From the NCBI GenBank assembly GCA_015661155.1, contig JACVQK010000011.1, positions 2,963 to 66,962 on the forward strand: a DNA stretch of 64,000 nucleotides. Reading direction: 5' to 3'. The stretch comes from Dehalococcoidia bacterium. GTDB taxonomy: Bacteria > Chloroflexota > Dehalococcoidia > Lucifugimonadales > UBA2985. Shown in pieces: positions 17,319 to 25,593 of this stretch. The notes below the pieces were generated by a model that worked only from the letters and a program-made list of their open reading frames with translations, had not been told where the DNA came from and made no database searches. Numbering within the stretch: position 1 is the stretch's first letter; each line of letters opens with the position of its first letter. Both the position numbers and the translations under genes were made by a program.

Positions 17319-18464
17319 ATGCCATCAACCGCCAACCCAGACACCGCCAGGGCCACGGAAATCGCCAAAGCCTACGCGCGGGAGCTGGGCTTCGACCTGG
17401 TGGGCATAGCCTCCGCGGAGCCTTTCCACGAGAAAGAGGCCATCACCCTGGAGCGGATGCGCCAGGGCCTCATGGACGGCCTCCCCTGGTTCCACCGGGC
17501 GCGCGTCCGGCGCGGCTGCCATCCCCAGGACATCCTGCCCAGCGCCCGCTCCATCATCGCCGTAGCCATGAGCTACTACCCGGAGGATGCGCCCTCATAC
17601 GATGAAACCCTGGGGGGTAAAGTCGCCCGCTACGCCCGGGGCCAGGACTACCACAAAGTCATGGAGCAGCGGCTCCAGGCCTTTGTCCGCGGGCTATCGG
17701 AGCGACTGGAGCGGGCCGTCCAGGCCCGGGTGTACGTGGATACAGGCCCCATGCTGGACCGGGCGGTGGCCGAGAGGGCGGGCATCGGATGGTTCGGCAA
17801 GAGCACCAACATCCTGACCCGCAACCACGGCTCCTGGGTGTTCCTGGGCCAGGTGATCACAGACCTGGAGCTGGAGCCGGACAAACCACTGAAAAAGACC
17901 TGCGGCCAATGCACCCTGTGCATGGACAAGTGCCCCACAGGAGCCATCGTCGCCCCCTATGTCATCGACAACGCCCGGTGCATCTCCTACCTCACCATCG
18001 AGAGCCGCGGCCCCATACCCCACTCCCTGCGGCCCCTGATGGGAGACCGGGTCTTCGGGTGTGACGTCTGCCAGGAGGTGTGCCCCGTGAACCGCAAGGC
18101 CAGGTTCACCCGGGAGCCTGCCTTTCGACCAGGAGAGCACGGCTTCACCGCCCTACAGCTTCTGCCCCTTCTCAGAATCACCGAAGAGGAGTTCGTGAAG
18201 ACCTTCCGCAACAGCCCCATCCGGCGGGCCAAAGGGATGGGACTCTTGCGCAACGTGTGCGTGGCCCTGGGCAACATGGGCGACTCCAGGGCCGTGCCGT
18301 ACCTCATGGAAGCCCTCGGCCACCGTGAGCCTCTGGTCCGGGGGCACGCCGCCTGGGCCCTGGGCAGGATCGGGGGCCAGGAGGCGATGAAGTCGCTAAC
18401 GGAGTCCCTGCTCACGGAGGTGAACGAAGGGGTGAGGGAGGAGATATCCCTGGCCCTCCGCTGA
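17319..18464 (+). CDS. queG: tRNA epoxyqueuosine(34) reductase
   Basis: Two 4Fe-4S ferredoxin motifs (CGQCTLCMDKCPTGAI, CDVCQEVCPVN), the cobalamin-binding N-region and C-terminal HEAT-like repeats (ALGNMGD..AVPYL..AL.H.EPLVRGHAAWALGRIG). Confidence 0.9.
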   Translation: MPSTANPDTARATEIAKAYARELGFDLVGIASAEPFHEKEAITLERMRQGLMDGLPWFHRARVRRGCHPQDILPSARSIIAVAMSYYPEDAPSYDETLGGKVARYARGQDYHKVMEQRLQAFVRGLSERLERAVQARVYVDTGPMLDRAVAERAGIGWFGKSTNILTRNHGSWVFLGQVITDLELEPDKPLKKTCGQCTLCMDKCPTGAIVAPYVIDNARCISYLTIESRGPIPHSLRPLMGDRVFGCDVCQEVCPVNRKARFTREPAFRPGEHGFTALQLLPLLRITEEEFVKTFRNSPIRRAKGMGLLRNVCVALGNMGDSRAVPYLMEALGHREPLVRGHAAWALGRIGGQEAMKSLTESLLTEVNEGVREEISLALR

Positions 18465-18563: not shown

Positions 18564-19898
18564 ATGCCCCAAGAGGATATACCCCAACCCCCAGCAGAAA
18601 CCCGCAAGAAGCCGCGCTACTTTTACGGCTGGAACATCGTTGCAGCCTCCTTCATGTCGCACCTGGCCTACGCCGAGCACGTCTCATCCGTGCTGGGCCT
18701 CTTCTTCAAGCCCTTCACTGCCGAGTTCGGATGGAGCCGCACCGCCATGTCGGCCGTTCAGTCCATCGCCCGGGTGCTCGAGGCGCTGGCGGCCCCCATG
18801 GTCGGCCCCCTCGTCGACCGGTACGGGCCCCGGGTGCTGATGCCCATCGGGGGCATCATGGTCGGCCTTACCATGCTGGCGATAACCCAGATGACCACCC
18901 TCTGGCACTTCTATCTGCTGCGGGGCGGGCTGACTGCCGTGGGCTTCACCCTCATAGGCGGCATGGTGACCACCGTGGCCGTCAACAACTGGTTCATCCG
19001 CAAGCGCGGCCGGGCCCTCGCCTTCGCCGGCGTCGGGACCAACCTGGGTAACGTGGCCCTGGTACCCATCATCGTGTGGCTCATCGCCAACAAGGGCTGG
19101 CGAAGCGTCTTCGTCCTGTTCGCCGTCCTCACCTGGGTGGTGGTCGTGATTCCATCGGCCATCCTCATGCGCCGCCGACCGGAGGACATGGGCCTGCATC
19201 CCGACGGGGTAGACCCCAGCACCGCCAAAGTCGCGAATCCACCGGAGGGAAAGCAAAGCTCCCCGTCAAGAGCGGCGGCCTCTACGCGAGAGCCTGTGTG
19301 GAGCCGAAAAGAGGTGCTGATGACCTCCGCCTTCTGGATGCTCGTTGGCGCTTCCGCCGTGGACAACCTGGCATTCCAGGGAATCAACATCAGCCTGGCC
19401 CCATACATTCAGGACCTGGGCTACCAAGACACCATGATGGCCGCAGTCATCACCTTCCGAGCCGCCCTCATGGCCATATCCCTCCCGGTGATGGGGTTCA
19501 TCGCCGAGTACGCCAACCAGGTACGGGTGCGAGTTTTCCCCTTCGTGCTGCTGGCCCTGGGGTCCTTCCTGTTCCTCCTGGCTGGAAAGCCGACCTTCCT
19601 CTGGCTGGCCGTGGGGGTGTACGGCCTGGGCCTTACGGCCATGGGGATAGTCCAGGAGGTGCTCTGGGCCAACTACTTCGGCCGCCTGAGCCTGGGAATG
19701 GTCCGCTCCACGGCCTTCCTGATAGCCTTCGGGTTTGGCGCCGCCGGCCCCATCTTCATGAACGCCGTCTTCGACATCCTCGGCTCGTACCGGCCAGCCT
19801 TCATTCTGTTCATCTTCCTCTTCATCATAGCCGGCTTCCTGATGGCGATGGCCCGGCCTCCCAAGGCCCGGCGCTACGCTGAGGCGAAGAGCCTTTAG
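18564..19898 (+). CDS. MFS transporter (OFA-like), tandem paralog 1
   Basis: 444 aa with about 12 TM segments. It is near-identical over its full length to the next gene. Confidence 0.85.
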   Translation: MPQEDIPQPPAETRKKPRYFYGWNIVAASFMSHLAYAEHVSSVLGLFFKPFTAEFGWSRTAMSAVQSIARVLEALAAPMVGPLVDRYGPRVLMPIGGIMVGLTMLAITQMTTLWHFYLLRGGLTAVGFTLIGGMVTTVAVNNWFIRKRGRALAFAGVGTNLGNVALVPIIVWLIANKGWRSVFVLFAVLTWVVVVIPSAILMRRRPEDMGLHPDGVDPSTAKVANPPEGKQSSPSRAAASTREPVWSRKEVLMTSAFWMLVGASAVDNLAFQGINISLAPYIQDLGYQDTMMAAVITFRAALMAISLPVMGFIAEYANQVRVRVFPFVLLALGSFLFLLAGKPTFLWLAVGVYGLGLTAMGIVQEVLWANYFGRLSLGMVRSTAFLIAFGFGAAGPIFMNAVFDILGSYRPAFILFIFLFIIAGFLMAMARPPKARRYAEAKSL

Positions 19899-19962: not shown

Positions 19963-21291
19963 ATGCCCCCTGAGAATACACCCCCACCCACAGCAGGAAC
20001 CCGCAAAAAGCCGCGCTACTTCTACGGTTGGAACATCGTTGCGGCCTCCTTCATGGCGCACCTGGCCTATGGCGAGCACTACTCCTCTGTGCTGGGCCTC
20101 TTCTTCAAGCCCTTCAAAGCCGAGTTCGGATGGAGCCGCACCGCCATGTCGGCCGTCCAATCCATCGCCCGGGTGATTGAGGCGCTGGCGGCCCCCATTG
20201 TCGGCCCCCTCATTGACCGGTACGGGCCTCGGGTGCTGATGCCCGTCGGTGGCATCATCGTCGGCCTTGCCATGCTGGCGGTGACCCAGATGACCACCCT
20301 CTGGCACTTCTATCTGCTGCGGGGCGGGCTGACTGCCTTGGGCTTCATGCTCATAGGCGGCATGGTGACCACCGTGGCCGTCAACAACTGGTTCGTCCGC
20401 AAGCGCGGCCGGGCCCTCGCCTTCGCCGGCGTCGGGACCAACCTGAGTAACGTGGCCCTGGTACCCATCATCGTGTGGCTCATCGCCGCGCACGGATGGC
20501 GAAGCGTCTTCGTCCTGTTCGCCATCCTCACCTGGGTAGTGGTCGTGATTCCATCGGCCATCCTCATGCGCCGCCGGCCGGAGGACATGGGGCTGCACCC
20601 CGACGGGGTAGAACCCACCGCCGCCAAAGTCGCGAATCCGGCGGGGGAGGAGCAGACCTCCCAGTCAAGGGCGGCGGCCTCTACGCGAGAGCCTGTGTGG
20701 AGCCGAAAAGAGGTGCTGATGACCTCCACCTTCTGGATGCTCATCGGCGCCTCTGCCGTGGACAACCTGGCCTTCCAGGGAATCAACATCAGCCTGGCCC
20801 CGTACATTCAGGACCTGGGCTACAACGACACGCTGATGGCCGCAGTCGTCACCTTCCGAGCCGCCATCATGGCCATATCCCTCCCAGCCATGGGGTTCCT
20901 GGCCGAGTACGCCCATCGGGTCCAGATCCGCGTTTTCCCCTTCGTGCTGCTGGCCATAGGGTCCTTCCTGTTCCTCCTGGCTGGGAAGCCAACCTTCCTC
21001 TGGCTGGCCGTGGGGGTGTACGGCCTGGGCCTTACGGCCGTGGGGATGGTCCAGGAGGTGCTCTGGGCCAACTTCTTCGGCCGTCTGAGCCTGGGAATGG
21101 TCCGCTCCACGGCCTTCCTGGTGGCCTTCGGATTTGGCGCCGCCGGTCCCATCTTCATGAACGCCGTCTTCGACATCGTCGGCTCGTACCGGCCGGCCTA
21201 CATCCTGTTCATCTTCCTCTTCCTCATAGCCGGCGTCCTGATGGCGATGGTCCGGCCTCCCAAAGCTCGGCGCTACGCTGAGCCGACATGA
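19963..21291 (+). CDS. MFS transporter (OFA-like), tandem paralog 2
   Basis: 442 aa, with roughly nine in ten residues identical to paralog 1 by eye. About 60 nt of upstream leader is also duplicated. Confidence 0.85.
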   Translation: MPPENTPPPTAGTRKKPRYFYGWNIVAASFMAHLAYGEHYSSVLGLFFKPFKAEFGWSRTAMSAVQSIARVIEALAAPIVGPLIDRYGPRVLMPVGGIIVGLAMLAVTQMTTLWHFYLLRGGLTALGFMLIGGMVTTVAVNNWFVRKRGRALAFAGVGTNLSNVALVPIIVWLIAAHGWRSVFVLFAILTWVVVVIPSAILMRRRPEDMGLHPDGVEPTAAKVANPAGEEQTSQSRAAASTREPVWSRKEVLMTSTFWMLIGASAVDNLAFQGINISLAPYIQDLGYNDTLMAAVVTFRAAIMAISLPAMGFLAEYAHRVQIRVFPFVLLAIGSFLFLLAGKPTFLWLAVGVYGLGLTAVGMVQEVLWANFFGRLSLGMVRSTAFLVAFGFGAAGPIFMNAVFDIVGSYRPAYILFIFLFLIAGVLMAMVRPPKARRYAEPT

Positions 21292-21324: not shown

Positions 21325-22359
21325 ATGTCCGCTAGAGCGCCCTTCCGACCACGGGGCCTGCCCACCGCCATCGGCAGCCTGCCCCACCGGGACCCGCAGG
21401 AGGCCTGCGCCTTGATATGGCGCTATCTACCTGACATCCCTGTCTGGCCCCAGCTTCCCCACCGCTCTCCCCTGGAGAACATGTATGCCCAGTACAGCCG
21501 GGGCTTCCCAGGGGTGCACGCCGGGACAGACAGGGTGTGGGTGGACCGCTCCCAGGACCTCATAGAGGGGCTGGCCCAGCTCTTTGCCGACGCCGAGGCC
21601 GGGGCCACCGAGCCCTATGCCCTCACCGCGGACTACGCCGCCGGCCTGGCCTCGTTCCTGGAGACCGCGAGGCGGCAGGGCACGCCGGTGGCGGTGAAAG
21701 GCCAGCTTATCGGCCCTGTAAGCTGGGGCCTCACCGTCACCGACCAGGACCGGCGCAGCCTCCTCTACGATGACACCCTGGCCGAGGCCATCGCCCAGAT
21801 GCTCCGCCTCCAGGCAGCGTGGCAGGAGAGGGCCCTTCGGGCCGTGTCCCCTCGCACCATCCTCTTCCTGGACGAGCCGTACCTCAGCGCCTTCGGCTCC
21901 GCCGTGGTGCCCCTGTCCCGGGAGCAGGCGGTGTCCCTGATCACCACGGTGCTGGAGGGGATATCCGGGCTGCGAGGGACCCACTGCTGCGGCAACACCG
22001 ACTGGCCCCTCCTCCTGGAAACACCCCTGGACATCCTCAGCTTCGACGCCTTCAGCTACGCCCCGTCCCTGAGCCTGTATCCCCGGGAGGTGACCGCCTT
22101 TTTGGAGCGGGGTGGCACCCTCGCCTGGGGCATCGTGCCCAGCGACGGGGCTACCCTGGCGGTGGAAGGAGTGGACAGTCTACTGCGCCGTCTTGATGAA
22201 GCCATGGCCCTGCTTTCAGCCAAGGGCCTGAACCCGGAGCTGCTTCGGGAGCAGTGCCTGATTACACCCTCCTGTGGGCTGGCGTCCCTGACGCCGGAGG
22301 CCGCGGAGCGGGCCCTGGCTCTCACCGCCGGGGTGTCCCGGGCCTTTCGGGAGAGGTAG
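21325..22359 (+). CDS. MetE/UROD-like (beta/alpha)8 barrel protein with a putative zinc site
   Basis: 344 aa. GTHCCGNTDW and ITPSCGLAS resemble the His/Cys zinc ligands of cobalamin-independent methionine-synthase-type methyltransferases. The stop TAG lies in the terminus of repeat A5. Confidence 0.7.
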   Translation: MSARAPFRPRGLPTAIGSLPHRDPQEACALIWRYLPDIPVWPQLPHRSPLENMYAQYSRGFPGVHAGTDRVWVDRSQDLIEGLAQLFADAEAGATEPYALTADYAAGLASFLETARRQGTPVAVKGQLIGPVSWGLTVTDQDRRSLLYDDTLAEAIAQMLRLQAAWQERALRAVSPRTILFLDEPYLSAFGSAVVPLSREQAVSLITTVLEGISGLRGTHCCGNTDWPLLLETPLDILSFDAFSYAPSLSLYPREVTAFLERGGTLAWGIVPSDGATLAVEGVDSLLRRLDEAMALLSAKGLNPELLREQCLITPSCGLASLTPEAAERALALTAGVSRAFRER

Positions 22360-22580
22360 CAGGGCGAGGCAGGGCAAGCCCTGCACCCACACTCTTCAGA
22401 GGCATCCATGGGCAGGCCTCACTCTAAGTCTGCCTAACTGGCTGCGGAAAAGGGGAGTACAGAGGGGCGAAGCCCCTTTGACGGGGGTCTGGGGGTGTCC
22501 CCCAGATTCAAGACTTACCCCCTTCCTGGCCAGGAAGGGGGCCAGGGGGATGGTCGAAAGGGTTTTTCAACACCCTGTTA
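22357..22580. repeat. family-A repeat, copy A5
   Basis: Order P5-P3-P2-P1-T. Its two ends contain the stop codons of the two convergent flanking genes (TAG 22357-22359, and TAA on the reverse strand at 22578-22580). Confidence 0.85.
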
Positions 22581-23552
22581 CTCTATCCCCAGTTCCTCCT
22601 TGACCTCCCTCACCGCGGCGACCATCACCCGTAGCTTGGCCACCGACTCCTCCTCGGTCCGGGTCTTGAGGCCGCAATCGGGGTCTATGTAGAGACGCTC
22701 GGGAGACAGGACCTCCAGGCCCTTCCTTATCCCCTCCTTCACCTGCTCCACGCTCTCGGTTTCGTGATGGTGGACATCCACCACCCCCATGGACAGGCAC
22801 TTCCCAAAGGAGTGTTGGCGTATAAGGTCCAGGAGGTTGTAGTTGCTGTTGGCCGTCTCCAGGTCCAGCATGTCCACCGGCAGGGCAGCGAGCTGAGGGA
22901 AGACCGCGGCGAAATCCCCGTAGCAGACGTGGGTGATGGTGAAGGCCTCCAGGCCCCGGGTGACAACAGCCAGGGCCCGGGCGGCCATCTCCATCTCCTC
23001 GGGCCGGGTGGAGATGGCGGGCTCGTCGATCTGAATGTATTCGGCCCCCGCTTTGGCCAGGTCTACGGCCTCATCGTGCACGGCCCGGGCCACCTCCATC
23101 AGGAAGGCCTCCCGGGTGGGATAGTACTCATTGAAAGACCAGTCAACGATGGTGTACGGCCCGGTGAGCATGCCCTTGACCGGCCTGGGGGTCAGGCTCT
23201 GGGCATACCTCCACCACTCCAGGGTTGTCGGCCTGCTCCTGCCCACGGGGCCTACCGCCACCGGCTTGCGGTAGTAGCGATTTCCGTAGGAGCGGACCAG
23301 GCCACTGGTGGTGAAGCCCTCCCAGTTCTCGGCGAAGTAGGCCACCATGTCGCCCCGGTACATCTCCCCATCCACCAGGATGTCCATCCCCAACTCCTCC
23401 TGGATGCGAATCCAGTGGGCGGTGGCCCTCTTCTCCAGCTCCTCCATCTCCTTGGGGGACACCTCGCCCCGGGCCACCCGGGCGCGCGCCCGAAGGACGT
23501 ACTCCGGTTTGGGGTAGCTTCCGACGGCGGTGGTCAGCAGCCCCCGGGTCAT
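22578..23552 (-). CDS. metE: methionine synthase catalytic barrel (MetE C-terminal-domain type, about 325 aa)
   Basis: Starts at Met60 of ORF 22578..23729 (ATGA overlap with the upstream gene). MTRGLLTTAVGSYPKP... with all four MetE-type zinc-site positions present: THVCYG (His, Cys), LDLETANS (Glu), IDPDCGLKTR (Cys). Confidence 0.85.
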   Translation of the reverse strand: MTRGLLTTAVGSYPKPEYVLRARARVARGEVSPKEMEELEKRATAHWIRIQEELGMDILVDGEMYRGDMVAYFAENWEGFTTSGLVRSYGNRYYRKPVAVGPVGRSRPTTLEWWRYAQSLTPRPVKGMLTGPYTIVDWSFNEYYPTREAFLMEVARAVHDEAVDLAKAGAEYIQIDEPAISTRPEEMEMAARALAVVTRGLEAFTITHVCYGDFAAVFPQLAALPVDMLDLETANSNYNLLDLIRQHSFGKCLSMGVVDVHHHETESVEQVKEGIRKGLEVLSPERLYIDPDCGLKTRTEEESVAKLRVMVAAVREVKEELGIE

Positions 23553-24523
23553 GAGCGCACCTCCTGGGCCCTTCTCACTCCATCCACCAGGCGGGCCAGC
23601 TTGGCCCTGGCGCTCTTCCGGGGCAGGAAGTCCAGGCCACAGCTGGGATTGACGTGCAGACGGTCCGGAGACACCACCCGGGAGACGCGTCCAATGGCTG
23701 ATGCTATCTCCTCCACCGTCTCCAGGCATGTGTTCCGGGCGTCAACGATGCCGAAGCCCAGCATCTTATCCGGAGGGAAGTCCCTGACAAGGTCGTAGTT
23801 GGCAGGCCCCGCCACAAAGTCCAAACCTATTATGTCAACAGGTAGCTGGAAGAGCCGGCTGTGTATCCCAGAGACATCTCGGAAGTAGGTGTACACCGCA
23901 GTCCTGGCCGTGACTCCCCGAGTGACCCCTTCTACCGCCTCGGCGAAGAGGTCGAAGTCATCCTTGTGCTGGAGAATGGCAGGCTCATCGAACTGGACGA
24001 CCTCTGCCCCAGCCTGCTGGAGAGCCAGGGCCTCCCGGTTCAGAATCGGCACCAGGTCCATGACCAGGGAGCGAAGGTCTCTGTAGCACCCCATCTGAGA
24101 GAGCCGCGCCAGGGTGTAGGGACCTGTGATGACCCCTTTCACCGGCCTAGCGCTGTGGGCCACCGCGAACTCCAGGTCTCCCACGCCGATGGCACCCTGC
24201 CACTCCAGCCTCCTCTCCGGGATGGGGTGACGGTAGTAGGTGTTGGTATCGAAGTATCGGATCAGGCCATTGATGGTGAAGCCCTTGATGCCCCGGGCAA
24301 AGTAGGTCTGGCCGTCGTCCCGGCGAATCTGTCCATCGGTGATGAGGTCGATGCCCGCGTCTATCTGCTCCTGGATAACCTCCCTGGTCACATCATCCTC
24401 AACGCGACGCAGCTCCTCCACCGTGATCCGGCCCGCGTCGTGGCGCGAGATGGCGGCGCGGAGGCTGGGTGCCCCGGCATCGGGAGAGAGCTTGGGATAG
24501 CTTCCCACCACAGTAGTAATCAA
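23549..24523 (-). CDS. MetE-like barrel lacking the zinc site (MetE N-terminal-domain-like partner)
   Basis: 324 aa. MITTVVGSYPKL... is colinear with the downstream catalytic paralog, but the ligand positions read AVYTYF (no His or Cys) and GLDFVAG (Asp for Glu). Only the last Cys (VNPSCGL) is retained. Confidence 0.8.
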   Translation of the reverse strand: MITTVVGSYPKLSPDAGAPSLRAAISRHDAGRITVEELRRVEDDVTREVIQEQIDAGIDLITDGQIRRDDGQTYFARGIKGFTINGLIRYFDTNTYYRHPIPERRLEWQGAIGVGDLEFAVAHSARPVKGVITGPYTLARLSQMGCYRDLRSLVMDLVPILNREALALQQAGAEVVQFDEPAILQHKDDFDLFAEAVEGVTRGVTARTAVYTYFRDVSGIHSRLFQLPVDIIGLDFVAGPANYDLVRDFPPDKMLGFGIVDARNTCLETVEEIASAIGRVSRVVSPDRLHVNPSCGLDFLPRKSARAKLARLVDGVRRAQEVRS

Positions 24524-24674
24524 AGGGATAGCTCCTTTACGGGGAATAGTGCCTAGTAAGACCTGACATCAGAAGAGTGCAGGGACTAAGCCCTTCATTG
24601 AATGCTACTATTGGCGCTTCCATACCGTCAATCCTGAAAACCTGGGTTCCAGAAGCCCCATAGAGGGGCGACAC

Positions 24675-24823
24675 CAGCAGGCTGTTGAAAAACCCTTTCG
24701 ACCATCCCCCCTCCCCCTTCCTGGCCAGGAAGGGGGAGAGTTTAAATCCGGGGGACACCCCCAGACCCCCGTCAAAGGGGCGTTGCCCCTCTGTACTCCC
24801 CCTCTGTACATCAGCCTGCTAGG
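24675..24823. repeat. family-A repeat, copy A6
   Basis: Order T-P1-P2-P3, ending CAGCCTGCTAGG. It overlaps the last codons and the stop of the hydrolase gene. Confidence 0.85.
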
Positions 24824-25593
24824 GGGGGGAACCTCCCCTTCAGCCACTCCAGGGCTGCGCTGATGACCGCCCCCTCATGGCGAAAGCGGTGTCCCACCCC
24901 CGGCAGCAGCCGTAGCTCCTTGGGATCCCCGGCCCGCTCAAAGAGGGTGTACACGCTCTCGGGCGACACCACGTCATCCGCGTCTCCGTGGAGCAACAGC
25001 AGGGGTCGGGAAGCCACCTTGCCCACCCACTCCACGGGGCTGAGCCTCTGGCTCTCCTCGGCCCAGGTCTCCAGCGAAGGAGGGAAGTCCGGGTCTCGTA
25101 TGACGCCCAGGGCACGCAGCCGCTCCACGGCCTCGGCTGGCCTGGGCCGTGGCCCCGTGACCGCGGGGCTGGCGAAGGCCACCAGGGCGGCCACCTCCTT
25201 TCGGTGCGCCGCCACGTAGATGGCCACGGCGGCCCCCATGCTGGAGCCAAGGAGGGCGATACGGGACCCATCCACCTCCGGCCTCTCCAGCAGCCAGGAC
25301 ACCACCGCATCCAGGTCCTGGGCCCAGCCCAGGGGGTGGAAGTTTCCGCCGCTCTCCCCTGTTCCACGGAAGTTGAAAATCAGGGTGGCAAACCCCTCCC
25401 AGGCGCACATCTCCGCCAGGGCGGGGTAGTCCGGGTCTCTGCCGGCGGGAGCCGCCGCGCCGGGGGTCTGGCGCGGGCCTGCCGGCATCCCGTGGCACAT
25501 CACCAGACCTGGATGAGGCCCAGGCCCCGGCGGAGTGAAGAGGGCCAAGACCAGGGAAACCCCACCGCTATCCAGCCAGAGGCTCTCTCGCAT
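24811..25593 (-). CDS. alpha/beta hydrolase (dienelactone hydrolase / S9-like)
   Basis: Starts at Met29 of ORF 24811..25677; the upstream codons are repeat A7. Nucleophile elbow GSSMGA, then LLLLHGDADDVV and GVGHRF (Ser-Asp-His). Confidence 0.8.
   Translation of the reverse strand: MRESLWLDSGGVSLVLALFTPPGPGPHPGLVMCHGMPAGPRQTPGAAAPAGRDPDYPALAEMCAWEGFATLIFNFRGTGESGGNFHPLGWAQDLDAVVSWLLERPEVDGSRIALLGSSMGAAVAIYVAAHRKEVAALVAFASPAVTGPRPRPAEAVERLRALGVIRDPDFPPSLETWAEESQRLSPVEWVGKVASRPLLLLHGDADDVVSPESVYTLFERAGDPKELRLLPGVGHRFRHEGAVISAALEWLKGRFPPLAG

Follow-up and report, generated by a model that had tools for sequence, protein, structure and literature searches.

Two overlapping genes of a Dehalococcoidia bacterium interpreted as a split cobalamin-independent methionine synthase

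Results and discussion

An overlapping pair of MetE-type genes

The subject of this study is a pair of adjacent reverse-strand genes in a 64,000-nt stretch (the window, to which all coordinates refer) of contig JACVQK010000011.1 from a groundwater Dehalococcoidia bacterium (GCA_015661155.1). Each gene encodes a barrel of the type found in the cobalamin-independent methionine synthase MetE, and an earlier reading of this DNA from its letters alone (hereafter the sequence-only reading) had proposed that the two represent a MetE split into separate polypeptides. Both genes, and the ATGA overlap that joins them, lie where that reading had placed them (Table 1). The upstream gene begins with a TTG at 24523, a start that is kept at the same position in its closest relatives, and ends with a TGA stop at 23551-23549, while the ATG start of the downstream gene lies at 23552-23550. 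The two genes are interpreted as a bicistronic, translationally coupled operon.

Table 1. Features of the MetE-type gene pair and its surroundings in the window
Feature	Position	Strand	Remarks
Zinc-less N-type MetE barrel gene	23549..24523	-	324 aa, TTG start; putative non-catalytic partner subunit of split MetE
Catalytic C-type MetE barrel gene	22578..23552	-	324 aa, ATG start; predicted zinc and homocysteine site
ATGA overlap of upstream stop and downstream start	23549..23552	-	Translational coupling; read from sequence
Shine-Dalgarno AAGGAG	24532..24537	-	8 nt ahead of the TTG of the upstream gene; read from sequence
Shine-Dalgarno AGGAGG	23560..23565	-	7 nt ahead of the ATG of the catalytic gene, within the end of the upstream gene
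Candidate sigma-70-like promoter TTGACG-18 nt-TAGCAT	24602..24631	-	Upstream of the pair; consensus match only

The two products are colinear, as had been proposed for barrels of about 325 aa, and share 35% identity over their full length (BLAST, E 1e-59). In Pfam, each matched both Meth_synt_2 (PF01717) and Meth_synt_1 (PF08267): the downstream protein scored 285.8 bits with Meth_synt_2, and the upstream protein 139.6 bits with Meth_synt_2 and 100.8 bits with Meth_synt_1, for which the cut-off is 27. This profile comparison, which the sequence-only reading had named as a check, and the residue alignments described below left the upstream protein neither with an intact set of ligands nor in an unrelated family. 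The catalytic protein reached 397.5 bits on NF003317, just below the cut-off of 406 (a catalytic subunit from Sulfolobales reached 530 bits), and the profile of fused MetE, TIGR01371, gave 302.5 and 117.9 bits for the two halves against a cut-off of 929.95; the score on NF006589, considered with regard to MesD, was 143.5 bits against a cut-off of 392.

A disabled zinc site in the upstream barrel

The downstream protein retains all four zinc-site positions, H208, C210, E232 and C293, in the motifs THVCYG, LDLETANS and DPDCGL that had been quoted for it, together with the homocysteine binders Ser12, Glu63 and Asp176, which correspond to S433, E484 and D599 of Escherichia coli MetE. At the zinc positions of the upstream protein stand Y211, Y213, D235 and C295 (Y-Y-D-C), with Phe214 next after Y213. 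Its motifs AVYTYF, GLDFVAG and NPSCGL are present, GLDFV and PSCGL being located where the N domains of fused MetE carry similar motifs. A gapped BLAST alignment pairs a Val with the zinc-binding Glu, but the ungapped and multiple alignments pair Asp235 with it instead. As aligned, the upstream barrel has lost the His and the first Cys, carries Asp in place of Glu and keeps the last Cys; the proposed loss of three of the four ligands therefore holds for the His and first Cys but not for the Glu, which is replaced by Asp235 rather than lost outright.

The same pattern is found in the disabled N barrel of the fused MetE of Thermotoga maritima, segments of which were seen in the alignment. In that enzyme, Phe230, Tyr232, Asp253 and Cys309 replace His618, Cys620, Glu642 and Cys704 (Pejchal and Ludwig 2005, PMC539065), and Tyr232 is stacked on Tyr233, which is a Phe in most MetE proteins (PMC539065). 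In addition, the beta2-alpha2 hairpin of the upstream protein, RYFDTNTYY, resembles KWFNTNYHY of fused N domains, unlike the SYGxRxxRKP of C barrels. Judged by these alignments, the upstream protein corresponds to the N-terminal barrel of fused MetE and likewise has a disabled zinc and homocysteine site.

Conservation and distribution of the pair

Among 80 related genome loci, 76 have the C gene directly after the zinc-less N gene. The 4-bp overlap occurs in 48 of these 76 pairs, and in 65 of them the gap ranges from -11 to +1 bases. There are two exceptions to the tight pairing: at locus L054 the 2.5 kb downstream contain no C-type gene, and the two genes at L091 are 568 bp apart. The upstream orthologues are intact and of equal length in 80 genomes, with 44-78% identity and 40 invariant positions.

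The pair was found in several families of the order to which the window belongs. Of 201 Dehalococcoidia species genomes sampled evenly across the class, 34 carry it, corresponding to 21 of 134 genera. At the level of 90% clusters, more than 2,000 relatives of the upstream protein were counted, the named ones being from Chloroflexi. The N-type family as a whole comprises at least 240 clusters (50% identity) at E below 1e-30, and the zinc ligands are missing in nearly all of the best 150; its named members come from Dehalococcoidia, Thermomicrobiales, Zixibacteria, NC10, Clostridia and Micrarchaeia.

Pairs 44-55% identical to that of the window were also observed on contigs binned as Nanoarchaeota, Zixibacteria, TA06, Gemmatimonadota, Planctomycetota, Omnitrophota and Alphaproteobacteria (L040, L047, L052, L055, L080, L088 and L091), and these reflect either lateral transfer or mis-binning. 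Conversely, no usable MetE-type gene was found in the small genomes (1.0-1.5 Mb) of the same family (G001-G003, G006-G011, G015 and G018), which have kept methylenetetrahydrofolate reductase (MTHFR). The members of the family that have no MetE-type gene may be methionine auxotrophs or users of another synthase.

Phylogeny of split and fused barrels

A maximum-likelihood tree was obtained by a quick search for 54 barrels, covering split N subunits, fused N halves, split C subunits and fused C halves, with core-type paralogues of related Dehalococcoidia as the outgroup. Every N-type barrel, whether split or fused, falls into one clade with the upstream protein, with full support in the Shimodaira-Hasegawa-like approximate likelihood ratio test (SH-aLRT 100), and the downstream protein groups in one clade with the fused C halves (support 99). 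Since the upstream protein is placed with the N-type barrels and apart from its neighbour, the upstream gene is not a recent local copy of the catalytic gene, and recent duplication was rejected.

In this tree the bacterial split subunits enclose both halves of fused MetE, a hint that the fused enzyme may have originated from the joining of such a pair. A short fused MetE-like protein of 699 aa (P0200, from a Logan contig) was also encountered, whose N half is without the usual insert of fused N domains and has M-W-D-A in place of the zinc ligands; here a split pair may have fused independently.

Constraint at the folate cleft and the zinc site

Arg22 and Arg89 are present in all of 77 N-type proteins compared, and Asp235 in 76 of them. 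Arg89 occupies the position equivalent to Lys104 of T. maritima, which bonds O4 of the pterin (PMC539065), and Arg22 may correspond, by motif position only, to the basic patch Arg15/Lys18 of T. maritima. In the same 77 proteins, the former zinc positions vary (Y/C/F, W/Y/I), as do the former homocysteine positions (N/S/H, Q/M/H, D/N).

All 72 C-type partners keep the first His and the last Cys of the zinc site, 71 keep the other Cys and 68 the Glu, and the homocysteine binders Ser12, Glu63 and Asp176 are invariant. In the four other partners the zinc-binding Glu is replaced by Ala (H-C-A-C), a replacement also seen in the representative P0199. Furthermore, DMV, Arg92, Arg95 and Trp138 of the catalytic protein align with DMV467-469, Arg493, Arg496 and Trp539 in the C-barrel folate cleft of T. 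maritima; every one of the 72 partners has the Asp-Met of DMV, Arg92 and Trp138, the Val of DMV occurs in 67, and R, H or K occupies position 95. The stand-alone core-type paralogues in related Dehalococcoidia, probably MesB, have none of these cleft residues (DMV, both Arg, the Trp) and lie without a zinc-less neighbour. Taken together, constraint falls where the folate cleft and the interface between the barrels would lie.

A predicted complex of the two proteins

The heterodimer prediction that the sequence-only reading had called for was run. The modelled complex of the two proteins gave an interface score (ipSAE) well above that of its controls, the best of three of which reached 0.00, and the mark set for this score is passed by 58 of 80 solved complexes and by 2 of 110 mismatched pairs. 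The model runs share at least 98% of their contacts, and the predicted local distance difference test score (pLDDT) is at least 93 for the partner and at least 89 for both chains. At the modelled interface, the long hairpins meet (residues 83-98 of the catalytic subunit and 87-98 of the partner), accompanied by residues 137-142 of the catalytic subunit and, in the partner, by the N-terminal helix with Arg22 and the loops 264-266 and 298-304. Invariant residues are enriched there, with 15 of 29 in the partner against 3.6 expected, and 15 of 20 in the catalytic subunit against 4.6 expected. The model supports, as a prediction, that the two proteins may bind each other, with the reservation on solved fused structures given below.

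Proposed function and methyl donor

The assembly has a size of 1.8 Mb and is 93% complete. It contains two PF01717 genes, both of them in this pair, and neither a full-length MetH nor a MetH-type homocysteine domain was found in this 93%-complete genome, in which the pair is the sole methionine synthase candidate found. Five MTHFR (PF02219) homologues are encoded (contigs C16, C62, C91, C47 and C88). The C91 homologue lies in a 558-aa open frame near genes for the corrinoid iron-sulfur protein (CoFeSP), and the C16 homologue adjoins a B12-binding domain. As both MTHFR and CoFeSP genes are present, methyl-tetrahydrofolate (methyl-THF) and a methylated corrinoid protein are both plausible methyl donors.

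We propose that the pair is a split cobalamin-independent methionine synthase, and this explanation as a whole, including a methyl-folate as the donor, is the best one available, with a probability of about 0.7. The interpretation is supported by the observed gene structure, family placement, conserved pairing and residue conservation; profiles, diagnostic residues, phylogeny, synteny and the complex model agree with the domain order of fused MetE on separate polypeptides, as the sequence-only reading had suggested. In the proposed mechanism, the zinc site of the downstream barrel (His208, Cys210, Glu232 and Cys293) would activate the thiol of homocysteine, which would be held by Ser12, Glu63 and Asp176. 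The upstream barrel would dock face to face on the catalytic barrel via the long beta2-alpha2 hairpins and thereby close an inter-barrel cleft, where methyl-THF, probably polyglutamylated, would bind and pass its methyl group directly to homocysteine to yield methionine. The five MTHFR homologues could supply the methyl-THF. The subunits would accordingly bind each other and use homocysteine as substrate, with a methyl-folate rather than a corrinoid protein as donor. Given the retained cleft residues, methyl-THF is the probable donor and a corrinoid protein an unlikely one. The caution that the donor could not be read from the sequence was well placed: the residues of the folate cleft are mostly kept, yet methyl-THF is not proven as the donor because the genome also encodes CoFeSP.

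Several observations weigh against this proposal. The upstream protein scores better on Meth_synt_2 than on Meth_synt_1, and the complex model may owe its pass (ipSAE 0.88) to memory of, or likeness to, solved structures of fused MetE. The 8-residue beta4-alpha4 insert with Glu583 is absent from the split catalytic subunits, in which Thr182 is the nearest residue; in T. maritima, Glu583 is a bidentate binder of the 2-amino and N3 groups of the pterin (PMC539065), and pterin recognition thus cannot be identical to that in fused MetE. Contig C91 carries the genes for the CoFeSP subunits of the Wood-Ljungdahl pathway and for an AcsE-like pterin-binding methyltransferase, and in other Dehalococcoidia CoFeSP has been proposed to supply the methyl group to MesB (PMC7857596). 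MTHFR does not discriminate, as it occurs in 39 of 41 relatives with or without the pair. Finally, split MetE itself is without a biochemical assay and is still listed as 'predicted' in GapMind 2026 (PMC13759103).

In one alternative, the downstream protein is a core-type corrinoid-dependent synthase similar to MesA or MesB that takes its methyl group from CoFeSP or another corrinoid protein, and the zinc-less paralogue is a scaffold or docking adaptor. Besides the genes on C91, the B12-binding domain next to the MTHFR gene on C16 and the missing Glu583 insert, it is favoured by the characterised Dehalococcoides enzyme, which takes its methyl group from methylcobalamin (PMC7005905), and by the reported 38% identity of MesA to a catalytic subunit of split MetE (PMC7857596). 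However, DMV, both Arg and the Trp are kept here and are absent from the true core paralogues of related Dehalococcoidia, which are just 23-32% identical to the catalytic protein and lie outside its clade; no gene for a corrinoid protein or a methyltransferase adjoins the pair, and the invariant residues of the partner fall on folate-contacting positions of the fused N barrel. We regard this alternative as unlikely. If the pair did take its methyl group from CoFeSP or another corrinoid protein with the zinc-less barrel as docking adaptor, which is likewise improbable, it would represent a fifth, two-subunit type of folate-independent methionine synthase.

A function of the pair as a MetE-like methyltransferase that acts on some thiol other than homocysteine is very improbable. 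Barrels of this kind have elsewhere taken on different substrates, and zinc-less MesB-like proteins of unknown role occur in Chloroflexales (Price et al., PMC7857596); nevertheless, the residues that bind the carboxyl and amino groups of homocysteine, Ser12, Glu63 and Asp176, are invariant in the 72 orthologues, no further methionine synthase candidate was found in the genome, and the catalytic protein, which has 42% identity to an archaeal catalytic subunit, falls in the clade that also contains the fused C halves. The idea that the upstream gene is a functionless, decaying duplicate of the catalytic gene would agree with the loss of two zinc ligands and with its 35% identity to its neighbour, but it is rejected as scarcely credible by the conservation data, namely the intact orthologues of equal length in 80 genomes, the old N-type clade with its many clusters, and the conserved gene order and overlap.

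Genomic context and regulatory signals

The candidate promoter ahead of the pair matches 9 of 12 consensus positions, and the region holds two such sites against a mean of 0.5 in shuffled sequence. GC-rich palindromic blocks lie at 22500-22580, directly 3' of the stop of the catalytic gene, and at 24675-24823, upstream of the operon. As no intrinsic terminator for the operon was found in a search of the region, the block at 22500-22580 may serve as its terminator. No S-adenosylmethionine or cobalamin riboswitch was found with Rfam at a permissive threshold in 22000-25200, where the only hit was a chance match to a long non-coding RNA.

The pair is surrounded by genes for QueG, two transporters of the major facilitator superfamily (MFS), an alpha/beta hydrolase and an M1 aminopeptidase, and no corrinoid, folate or methionine genes were found among its immediate neighbours. 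These neighbours are unrelated to methionine metabolism, and the context is therefore silent on the methyl donor. The MFS genes are tandem paralogues on the forward strand (444 and 442 aa; 18564-19898 and 19963-21291) with identical Pfam match coordinates, and both are located downstream of the gene for the epoxyqueuosine reductase QueG (17319-18464). DNA of the window is contained in freshwater and subsurface metagenome runs, and no RNA run is among those listed.

Comparison with known methionine synthases

The core MetE/MesB of Dehalococcoides mccartyi (cbdbA481/DET0516) acts alone and uses methylcobalamin (Deobald et al. 2020, PMC7005905). The organism studied here resembles D. mccartyi in belonging to the same class and in carrying a corrinoid iron-sulfur protein in its genome, and the catalytic protein shares the barrel fold and zinc motif of MesB. 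In contrast, the probable MesB-type paralogues carry an insert after H-x-C, in addition to their low identity to the catalytic protein, the missing cleft residues and the missing zinc-less neighbour described above. MesB is recognised by at least 173 bits to DET0516 and by the absence of a second barrel, and MesB-type genes of related genomes served as the comparison here. For MesX (PF08908), the companion of MesD, no match was found in the genome, and the control genomes gave no match either. Recognising the pair as split MetE fills the methionine synthase step in this genome, and the same step in about one in six sampled Dehalococcoidia species, a class otherwise thought to rely on MesB.

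Split MetE was defined from Pyrolobus and from Pyrococcus, whose PF1268 and PF1269 form a complex, and methyl-pterin donors were predicted for it (Price et al. 2021, PMC7857596). That report, which agrees with the earlier remark that split forms are already in the literature, found split MetE mainly in Halobacteria and Thermoprotei, with one bacterial case, Sulfobacillus sp. hq2. As in the archaeal systems, our pair consists of two adjacent genes for proteins of about 325 aa, one a zinc-less barrel with a Meth_synt_1 match and the other a zinc-bearing Meth_synt_2 barrel, and it is the only methionine synthase candidate found in its genome. Its catalytic half is 42% identical to a catalytic subunit from Sulfolobales (253 bits, BLASTP); this comparison and NF003317 are proxies for the published threshold for the catalytic component, a phmmer score of 200 bits or more with P. 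furiosus PF1269. Both components are within 400 aa, the zinc barrel stands alone, the Meth_synt_1 match of the partner is above the cut-off, and the two genes are adjacent across diverse genomes. The host differs from those of archaeal split MetE in being a Wood-Ljungdahl-positive Dehalococcoidia bacterium, and unlike the Sulfolobales subunit, the bacterial catalytic subunits are nearer to the C halves of fused MetE in the tree.

The published screening rule, by which the Meth_synt_1 score of a partner subunit should exceed its Meth_synt_2 score, does not hold for the upstream protein (100.8 against 139.6 bits), so that automatic annotation by this rule would miss it. Price et al. concede that the rule wrongly drops true partners, such as AMET1_0515 (PMC7857596), and it probably explains why Dehalococcoidia went uncounted. 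In public records, the upstream protein goes by "methylcobamide--CoM methyltransferase", or else the full name of MetE is attached to both halves. The pair is a new bacterial example of the known split MetE, and the distribution of the family indicates that split MetE is common in uncultured bacteria (Dehalococcoidia, Thermomicrobiales, Zixibacteria and NC10) rather than mostly archaeal.

With fused MetE (EC 2.1.1.14; E. coli b3829; T. maritima, PDB 1XPG/1XDJ; PMC539065), the pair shares the order of N-type and then C-type barrel, identical zinc ligands and an N barrel disabled in the same manner (aromatic, Tyr, Asp, Cys), as well as the elements of the folate cleft, namely, in the C barrel, DMV, two Arg and the Trp and, in the N barrel, a basic residue at the position of Lys104. 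Fused MetE is a single polypeptide of about 750 aa, whereas the pair comprises two open reading frames with a stop between them and no covalent linker. The N-type protein has neither the insert of about 30 residues nor the C-terminal extension of fused N domains, and the C-type protein is without the 8-residue beta4-alpha4 insert that holds Glu583. Moreover, the two halves are 35% identical here, compared with 25% over 185 residues in E. coli MetE, and this weakly diverged partner barrel may offer a handy system for probing the role of the second barrel of MetE.

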